A stretch of 64,000 nucleotides of DNA from Escherichia coli (GTDB lineage: Bacteria; Pseudomonadota; Gammaproteobacteria; Enterobacterales; Enterobacteriaceae): the NCBI RefSeq assembly GCF_017348835.2, contig NZ_CP071375.1; one strand, given 5' to 3'. A program made the position numbers and the translations under genes. This document shows, in pieces, positions 33,402 through 34,022 of this stretch. Every line of letters begins with the position of its first letter. Within the stretch, counting starts at the first letter, position 1. The notes under the pieces were generated by a model. The model saw only the letters and a program-made list of their open reading frames with translations. It did no database searches and was not told the DNA's origin.

Positions 33402-33858
33402 TCTCGATAAAGAACCCTATGAAAATAGCCGTAAATTACAGGAATTGATTTGGGATAAGTTGGTTGCGTATGTCAATGATTTTAACTTAAGCAATCAAGA
33501 AAAATCACGCTTAATACTAAGGTTATTTGATGATGTTAAGTTGCTATTTAATGAAGTGCCTGTCAGCATTTTAGTAAATGATATTTTTTTGAAGGATTTT
33601 TTCATGAGGCAACCTGATTTTGCGAAGTGGTACTTCTATCAATTACTTAAGAAGTATGAGGGCGAACAGCTGTATCTTAATGAGTTAGGATATGTTTATG
33701 GTAATGAAGAAAAAACAAATGAAATTGTAAAAAAACATCCGGGTTATGTCATTAAGATTTTTGAAGAAAAGATGGGTAATGAATTAAAAATTAGAACAAG
33801 AATGATGAAAATCCTCCGGAATGGCAAAATCAATATATATGAATATATGAATATATGA
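33382..33858 (+). pseudogene. YjgL-like downstream reading frame (+1 relative to 32298..33401); likely the same gene split by a frameshift at the T7 tract 33393-33399
   Basis: This frame is open from 33382; deleting one T of the T7 run fuses it in frame to the upstream ORF (…TLFFNLDKEPYENSRKLQELIWDKLV…). The track ORF 33445..33858 starts at a TTG. Confidence 0.5.
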
Positions 33859-33872
33859 ATATATGAATATAT
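33841..33872 (+). repeat. Octanucleotide microsatellite (GAATATAT)x4 spanning the stop codon of the yjgL-like frame
   Basis: Four perfect tandem copies of gaatatat read directly from the sequence, preceded by a partial atatat. Confidence 0.9.
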
Positions 33873-34022
33873 TAATAATGAACAGTTGGGAAAATTAAAT
33901 CCTCCGGAAGATTTACGTATAGTAATAGAAAAATTTGGGTGGTAGAATAGAACTATTACTACATAAAATAATGTGATGCCGGGATAGTTTTGTATTTCCC
34001 GGCATCTTTATAGCGATATCAA

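Follow-up and report, generated by a model that had tools for sequence, protein, structure and literature searches.

In the simple sequence repeat (SSR) contingency loci of Haemophilus, Neisseria and Campylobacter, slipped-strand mispairing acts on non-triplet units located within a coding sequence (CDS) and can in principle alter the reading frame. In Escherichia coli, the loci used for MLVA (analysis of tandem repeats of variable number at multiple loci), namely the CVN set of Lindstedt and the O157 Vhec/TR loci, are head-to-tail arrays that vary by slippage and often lie in poorly characterised open reading frames (ORFs). The units of the generic E. coli panel are reportedly 6, 15, 18 and 39 bp long, and to our knowledge long non-triplet repeats are scarce in this species. 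A further kind of instability is known from the deletion hotspots of lacI, where deletion between short direct repeats keeps one copy. Here we describe an octanucleotide array in a stretch of E. coli DNA of 64,000 nucleotides (contig NZ_CP071375.1 of assembly GCF_017348835.2), hereafter called the window. The array resembles all of these systems: its units stand head to tail within a CDS, their length is no multiple of three, and it is bracketed by 13-bp direct repeats, 64-88 bp apart, between which a deletion allele has formed.

The array forms the 3' end of yjgL, also known as icaR. In Shigella flexneri, icaR encodes a substrate of the type III secretion apparatus that is activated by MxiE/IpgC (PMC9241512). 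In E. coli the gene was described as AT-rich, of variable length, missing in most B2 strains, frequently disrupted and silent where mxiE/ipgC are lacking; its truncations were ascribed to insertion sequence (IS) elements and to phylogroup-specific indels (PMC9241512). The gene of the window is the same gene at the same locus (argI/argF, tabA, bdcR) and shares with it the AT richness, the lineage-variable length and the 3' truncations (PMC9241512). Our analysis indicates that the array is a hypervariable variable-number tandem repeat (VNTR), very probably generated by replication slippage in a decaying gene, and that its length changes are most likely neutral and do not constitute a switch.

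Results

The octanucleotide array exists in thirteen length classes

Direct reading of the window revealed a perfect periodic tract at 33835-33872, corresponding to 4.75 units in the register ATATATGA. The initial annotation had been correct in the coordinates of the array, in placing the stop codon inside it and in the positions of the flanking direct repeats. Tandem Repeats Finder (TRF) reported the array at 33835-33882 with a period of 8, 6.1 copies, 92% matches and a score of 82, which made it the best short-period array of the window. A regular-expression scan of the 64 kb for units of 4-12 bp repeated perfectly at least three times returned no other tandem. Folding of the array as single-stranded DNA gave no sign of hairpin-assisted slippage, the structures being no more stable than those of shuffled sequences (z ~0).

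The number of units (n) was then determined in 5,426 complete RefSeq E. coli genomes. Synthetic queries, consisting of the local flanks with 1, 2, 4, 8 or 13 units in between, were searched with stringent E-value cut-offs, and n was taken from the alignment length or end point; 18 fetched loci (L001 to L018) were checked by eye, with the array sequence itself read out in 16 fetched loci. The copy number ranged from 1 to 14 (n = 1-12 and n = 14), giving 13 length classes. An identical number in all strains, which the initial annotation had named as the contrary outcome of such a survey, is thus not what we found, and its view of the array as slippage-prone agrees with this whole-unit variation among complete genomes. 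About 635 genomes contained at least three units, with a mode at n = 5. As estimated from two independent 60-row samples, in which one row stands for ~10.6 genomes and the error is about ±10, 75-85 genomes had n = 3, 120-140 had n = 4, 190-200 had n = 5, ~115 had n = 6, ~30 had n = 7, ~20 had n = 8 and ~30 had n = 9. The longest arrays were counted exactly (n = 10 in eight genomes, n = 11 in three, n = 12 in two and n = 14 in one). Two units were present in 45 genomes, among them the type strain ATCC 11775 and the enterotoxigenic E. coli (ETEC) strain E24377A. A single unit was found in roughly 1,800 genomes (16 of 40 evenly spaced rows), and 58 genomes combined n = 1 with the immediate flank of the window at ≥99% identity. 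The divergent allele of the K-12/O157 type, which has no repeat, accounted for roughly 800 genomes (7 of 40 evenly spaced rows). Overall, expanded arrays are present in fewer than 13% of the genomes, and K-12 has no array at all.

Within the arrays several variant units were visible. Units of L006 and L007 have TAA instead of TGA, and their arrangement in L007 suggests that a 16-bp block was duplicated. A TC variant was seen in L013, and in L011 the array has slipped by 8 bp at its 3' edge.

Some sequencing platforms miscall AT-rich tandem repeats, and the length variation might on that account be an artefact of sequencing or assembly. We regard this as hardly credible. The arrays span 14-118 bp, well within single reads, and the differences always comprise whole 8-bp units. 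Furthermore, assemblies of the same lineage agree with each other (the derivatives of E. coli C, NCTC122 and WG5, two records of NCTC86 and three of ST540), and the collection was restricted to complete RefSeq genomes.

An exact-pattern scan of the GTDB species representatives returned no match, a weakly informative result. We take the E. coli representative to be the type strain, so that a match was to be expected. The type strain ATCC 11775 (hit H292) does carry the pattern in RefSeq; the GTDB representative collection may lack that assembly or differ from it.

Alleles that are otherwise identical differ in copy number

The nearest relatives of the window allele differ from it in the array. 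Over 1,831 nt PE164 matches the window with 0 single-nucleotide polymorphisms (SNPs), the sole difference being n = 3 where the window has n = 4. F2_81 (L017), with n = 1, is separated from the window by 1 SNP and by an additional A in the run 33729-33735. The same was observed in other haplotypes. In a group of alleles with ≤4 SNPs in 1,750 nt (group A), n was 4, 5 or 6, and this group also contained an array of three units with 8 bp deleted from its 3' edge and one of nine units whose last copy is imperfect. In a second group (group B, ≤3 SNPs) n was 3, 7 and 8. Because identical or near-identical alleles of ~1.8 kb differ in n, the array copy number changes in place, and much faster than bases are substituted.

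All expanded arrays that were read are embedded in a single local flank haplotype (TAATAATGAACAGTTGGG…); the one exception is an A-to-G substitution in L010 immediately beyond this sequence. The gene backgrounds in which these arrays reside are 30-200 SNPs apart. This pattern suggests a single origin of the expansion-prone allele, which would subsequently have been moved by recombination into a mosaic gene.

The mosaic raises the question of whether recombination merely shuffles pre-existing alleles instead of slippage acting in place. The window matches different alleles in different segments of yjgL, and the occurrence of one flank haplotype across such distant backgrounds is what shuffling would produce. 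Recombination can move arrays, but it cannot make new copy numbers, and thirteen length classes exist. Moreover, alleles separated by only 0-4 SNPs over ~1.8 kb differ in copy number, and the 16-bp block of L007, the TC unit of L013 and the 3'-edge slip of L011 indicate local events. Shuffling as the source of the length variation is therefore very unlikely, and slippage in place is the reading that we retain.

Expansion beyond two units always yields the same C terminus

The repeat unit contains a TGA. Since 8 is congruent to 2 modulo 3, three successive TGAs, 8 bp apart, close all three frames. The C termini were modelled for n = 0-10 in the flanks of the window. With one unit the full tail is read through to …GW and the stop, with two units a frameshifted form (…YMNILIMNSWEN, then stop) results, and from n = 3 to n = 10 the protein always ends in …KINIYEYMNI. 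Thus any n ≥ 3 gives the same C terminus because the TGA recurs every 8 bp and offers a stop in every frame. Read-through at n = 1 is exemplified by BL21, which has an intact CDS of 550 aa; the stop in the third unit removes 21 residues from such a protein (tail ...YINNEQLGKLNPPEDLRIVIEKFGW). Indeed, a single protein, WP_033803171.1, is annotated for strains with n = 3, 7 and 8 alike. From n = 4 onwards only a contraction to ≤2 copies alters the product. The initial expectation of an altered or extended C terminus upon a change in copy number is consequently not borne out for n ≥ 3, where all products end in YEYMNI. The NCBI annotation pipeline PGAP was inconsistent in its treatment of the array-borne stop (L001, L004, L005, L011 and L018 versus L006, L007 and L012-L015): the gene was called either a pseudogene, with an internal stop or frameshifted, or an intact shorter CDS, apparently depending on the closest reference protein.

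In the window itself, yjgL is already a pseudogene before the array is reached. Alignment of the window allele to eight other alleles, and additionally to its three nearest relatives, revealed three lesions compared to intact alleles such as that of BL21 (550 aa). The first is one extra T in the run at 33393-33399, which is T6 in nine other alleles (the eight aligned ones and E. coli C) and T7 also in the nearest relatives PE164 and F2_81. Because of this extra T the gene is split into two ORFs in this strain (Table 1). The second lesion, at 33347/33348, is the reduction of a 24-bp tandem duplication to a single copy, which leaves the frame intact, and the third is the array-borne TGA. E. coli C has n = 4 as well, but T6 and both 24-bp copies. 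As the frameshift lies upstream, the array is without any coding consequence here. The start of the ORF at 32298 is the annotated start of related alleles when the 24-bp and 1-bp indels are allowed for.

Downstream of the array, the reading frame stays open to the TAG at 33943-33945, and the PGAP pseudogene in L001, which has an identical 3' end, reaches the equivalent TAG. The tail motif LNPPE[DN]LRI[AV]IE..GW is kept by alleles with a single unit as well as by that of K-12, a divergent allele with only ~80% identity at the DNA level over the 3' two-thirds of yjgL. Its presence in both points to the tail as ancestral coding sequence that was formerly under constraint.

Table 1. Features of yjgL and its immediate surroundings, in coordinates of the window
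Feature	Position	Strand	Description
5' yjgL fragment	32298..33401	+	367 codons; ends at TAA (33399-33401) made by the frameshift
T7 homopolymer run	33393..33399	+	one extra T; frameshifts the gene
3' yjgL ORF fragment	33445..33858	+	137 codons, original downstream frame; ends in the array
Second T7 run	33584..33590	+	T8 in deletion allele L003, which PGAP marks frameshifted
Left 13-bp direct repeat AAATCCTCCGGAA	33809..33821	+	exact
Octanucleotide VNTR	33835..33872	+	(ATATATGA)x4 + ATATAT, equivalent to (GAATATAT)x4 at 33841-33872
In-frame TGA	33856..33858	+	third TGA in the array, first in the reading frame; closes ORF 33445..33858
Stranded coding remainder	33859..33945	+	…IYEYINNEQLGKLNPPEDLRIVIEKFGW, then stop; in frame with the ORF, open to TAG 33943-33945
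Right 13-bp direct repeat AAATCCTCCGGAA	33897..33909	+	exact; 88 bp from the left copy
Putative terminator hairpin	33975..34006		GATGCCGGGA…TCCCGGCATC; between convergent yjgL and argI, downstream of the array

These data bear on whether the locus is a contingency locus, in which gain or loss of 8-bp units would switch the C terminus of YjgL/IcaR by phase variation. A unit that is no multiple of three, located inside an ORF and highly polymorphic in copy number, is what such a locus would have. There are also three distinct C termini for n = 1, n = 2 and n ≥ 3, the tail that is lost is conserved, and n = 1 is found on the local haplotype of the expanded arrays themselves. However, all n ≥ 3 specify one identical product, and with n = 4-9, that is in most expanded alleles, the array is at least two steps away from any product change. 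The array is located at the extreme 3' end of the gene, not at its 5' end or in its promoter, the gene in the window is independently frameshifted, and the laboratory derivatives show no variation. In addition, icaR is reported to be silent in E. coli without MxiE/IpgC (PMC9241512). Taken together, we consider a phase-variation switch unlikely compared to neutral slippage.

The flanking direct repeats define a widespread deletion allele

With the exception of the array at 40948-41339, the window has no direct repeat of ≥13 bp within 120 nt other than the two 13-bp copies listed in Table 1. Composition-preserving block shuffling produced one or more such repeats in 8% of cases, so that chance is possible on sequence alone. 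The fetched allele L003 (…ATGATGAAAATCCTCCGGAAGATTTACG…) contains exactly one 13-mer, and the interval between the copies is gone. This junction was detected in 1,329 genomes (~24%), of which 1,303 matched at ≥99% identity over 156 nt; the deletion probably arose once and then spread. The existence of a one-copy allele without the interval in so many genomes gives weight to the bracketing repeats pointed out in the initial annotation. As the flanks of L003 resemble those of the n = 1 allele L008, the event was probably a deletion of 64 bp from an n = 1 progenitor, which corresponds to 88 bp relative to the window. Both a 64-bp and an 88-bp deletion shift the frame.

Insertion of a mobile element with a 13-bp target-site duplication was rejected as the origin of the repeats: the interval aligns in frame with K-12 yjgL and encodes a homologous peptide. 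K-12 yjgL has no left-hand repeat, and its right-hand repeat has one mismatch.

Further variation in and around yjgL

Homopolymer runs of yjgL other than the one at 33393-33399 also differ between strains. The run at 33729-33735 is A7 in the window and A8 in F2_81, which results in a frameshift, and a second T7 run is altered in the deletion allele (Table 1). The earlier proposal that a T7 tract makes this locus slippage-prone is in line with these differences. The 24-bp unit GATTTTAGCTGCGATCAATCTAAA is present once in the window (33348-33371), as a perfect x2 tandem in E. coli C and as a near-perfect x2 tandem in most other alleles; it constitutes an in-frame indel of 8 codons. An in-frame 18-bp (hexapeptide) repeat at 32853-32894 has 2.3 copies in the window, 12.4 copies in K-12 yjgL (L002 1341-1564) and fewer copies still in L007. 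It is possibly the 18-bp MLVA locus CVN002.

IS1 was found inside yjgL in several strains, and IS2 truncates the adjacent tabA in QL57EC (insertion sites in L008 1394-2091, hits H163 and H168, and L012 1-496); they are additional, independent lesions of the locus. Comparison of 32298-33945 with L001-L018 showed that yjgL is a strong recombination mosaic whose segments match different allele families. Divergence from K-12 is ~20% in the 3' two-thirds of yjgL and ~2-3% in the segment of ~1.2 kb from the terminator to argI. The strongest repeat of the window as a whole is located at 40948-41339 (96-bp period, 4.1 copies, 95% matches). Its consensus resembles repetitive extragenic palindromic (REP) sequences and bacterial interspersed mosaic elements (BIME), being of the GCCTGATGCGACGCT…GCCGGATAAGGCG type.

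Gene identity and regulatory context

The gene order is tabA (yjgK), yjgL and the convergent argI, followed by rraB and yjgM. Orthology of yjgL is supported by synteny with tabA and argI in 18 of 18 fetched loci and by a nucleotide identity of 80-90% to K-12 yjgL. The GC content of yjgL in the window is 32%, compared to 51% for the whole window and 52% for argI. A yjgL match was present in 4,809 of the 5,426 complete genomes, leaving ~11% without one, and PGAP names the product variously 'DNA-binding protein', 'hypothetical protein' or 'protein YjgL'. The description of yjgL as a core-region gene in the initial annotation does not fit its base composition, the share of genomes without a match or its frequent disruption. 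It is an accessory, AT-rich gene, probably of horizontal origin, and it is being lost piecemeal in E. coli.

Searches with the YjgL protein gave nothing significant in NCBIfam, PADLOC or the PDB sequences. In PHROGs only phrog_27330 (unknown function) was hit, with E = 0.004, and in Pfam only a sub-threshold match to the SopA central domain (independent E-value 0.016). For the MxiE box, the published version of which is given as a figure only, a consensus (GTATCGTTTTTTTANAG) had no match with ≤3 mismatches in the window. The region upstream of yjgL at 32160-32297 is T-rich (…GAGCGTTTTTTGATATTTTTTTGTGAG…), and a T-rich MxiE-box candidate is located at ~32225-32241.

Between yjgL and argI, the hairpin listed in Table 1 has an RNA folding energy of -20.2 kcal/mol (z = -4.3), and none of 200 shuffles was as stable. 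A simple terminator scan did not flag it because its T tail is short. From the predicted fold, this hairpin probably terminates both convergent genes. Around the array, promoter and terminator scans gave nothing above chance, and an Rfam search gave no match.

In view of its position, we also considered whether the array is a functional non-coding element, either a 3'-end or protein-binding element for argI or a site for H-NS or ArgR. The array is AT-rich, repeats TGAAT, which is an ARG-box half site, and is only ~165-190 bp away from the argI stop codon (34023-34025, opposite strand). Seen from argI, however, it lies beyond the strong hairpin, the TGAAT copies are direct repeats and not inverted as in an ARG box, and argI has its promoter at the end remote from the array. 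The lack of any excess of promoter or terminator signals and of an Rfam match, a single-stranded DNA fold equal to that of shuffles, and the restriction of expanded arrays to <13% of genomes, with none in K-12, also argue against such a role. A regulatory function is accordingly a very remote prospect beside that of a neutral repeat in a decaying gene.

Discussion

The anatomy of the array, its polymorphism, the variation on identical haplotypes, the common product of all n ≥ 3 and the deletion junction were read directly from the sequences. From these observations we infer that the mechanism is slippage, that the loops escape mismatch repair and that the variation is neutral. The ancestral allele probably contained 1.75 units (ATATATGA ATATAT) that were read through to the conserved C-terminal tail. 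One local haplotype would have gained a second unit, after which slipped-strand mispairing would have added and removed whole 8-bp units. MutS-dependent repair is limited to loops of roughly 4 nt, and the 8-nt loops formed in this process would be too large for it. The third unit puts a stop in frame, so that later units remain untranslated and their gain or loss is silent, and the array would drift neutrally. Such a drift would fit the broad unimodal distribution of n, which extends from 3 to 14 with a mode at 5. Deletions between short direct repeats arise by RecA-independent slipped misalignment, and the 13-bp repeats would have allowed a separate event of this type. The homopolymer slips may represent a third kind of slippage in this silent, dispensable and AT-rich gene.

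Several observations weigh against a purely neutral array. The genomes with n = 2 (45) are scarcer than those with n = 3-6, which a simple model of stepwise neutral change would not lead one to expect; the scarcity might point to selection against the frameshifted tail. In intact alleles the tail has been conserved, and its loss may not be strictly neutral where the gene is expressed. Moreover, the same tail was lost by three routes, namely array expansion, direct-repeat deletion and IS insertion, in roughly 2,000 genomes. The laboratory lineages are steady, n being 4 in the E. coli C, NCTC122 and WG5 derivatives and 1 in the BL21 derivatives; the instability therefore operates on an evolutionary and not necessarily on a culture time scale. 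Finally, the frequencies themselves are to be read with care, as the class sizes for n = 3-9 are sample-based estimates and the genome collection is neither phylogenetically independent nor balanced. The array could also be a switch of low frequency that acts on the conserved tail of YjgL/IcaR as a type III secretion substrate; the repeated loss would then reflect selection against the tail, and the small number of genomes with n = 2 would be due to selection against the form with a frameshifted tail. We consider this improbable. Neutral decay is an adequate explanation, and selection against the tail a less probable one.

Nothing here indicates a new biological mechanism. The locus is a worked example of a repeat in which a stop-bearing unit makes expansion self-silencing, and the array accounts for the inconsistent PGAP annotation of one and the same lesion. 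Among the papers searched, none gives the repeat sequence or ties yjgL/icaR to a tandem repeat; a genuine VNTR and candidate deletion hotspot has apparently gone undescribed. The array may serve as a typing marker for the phylogroups with this allele family, while being invisible in the K-12 and O157:H7 references.

Compared to the known systems, the locus differs in several respects. In contrast to the E. coli MLVA loci, its unit is 8 bp long. Neither the K-12 nor the O157:H7 allele contains the array, and panels based on these two references would therefore overlook it. Unlike in the SSR contingency loci, the array is 3'-terminal and its unit bears a stop, so that one unit more or less does not switch the product; the window allele is not intact, and the gene is reported to be silent in E. 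coli. Whereas the lacI sites are recurrent laboratory hotspots, the yjgL deletion is a fixed natural polymorphism in ~24% of genomes that probably goes back to a single event. The published account of icaR does not describe the 8-bp array, the direct-repeat deletion or the homopolymer frameshifts (PMC9241512), and the present analysis thereby adds three mutational routes to the decay of this gene: array expansion, direct-repeat deletion and homopolymer slips.

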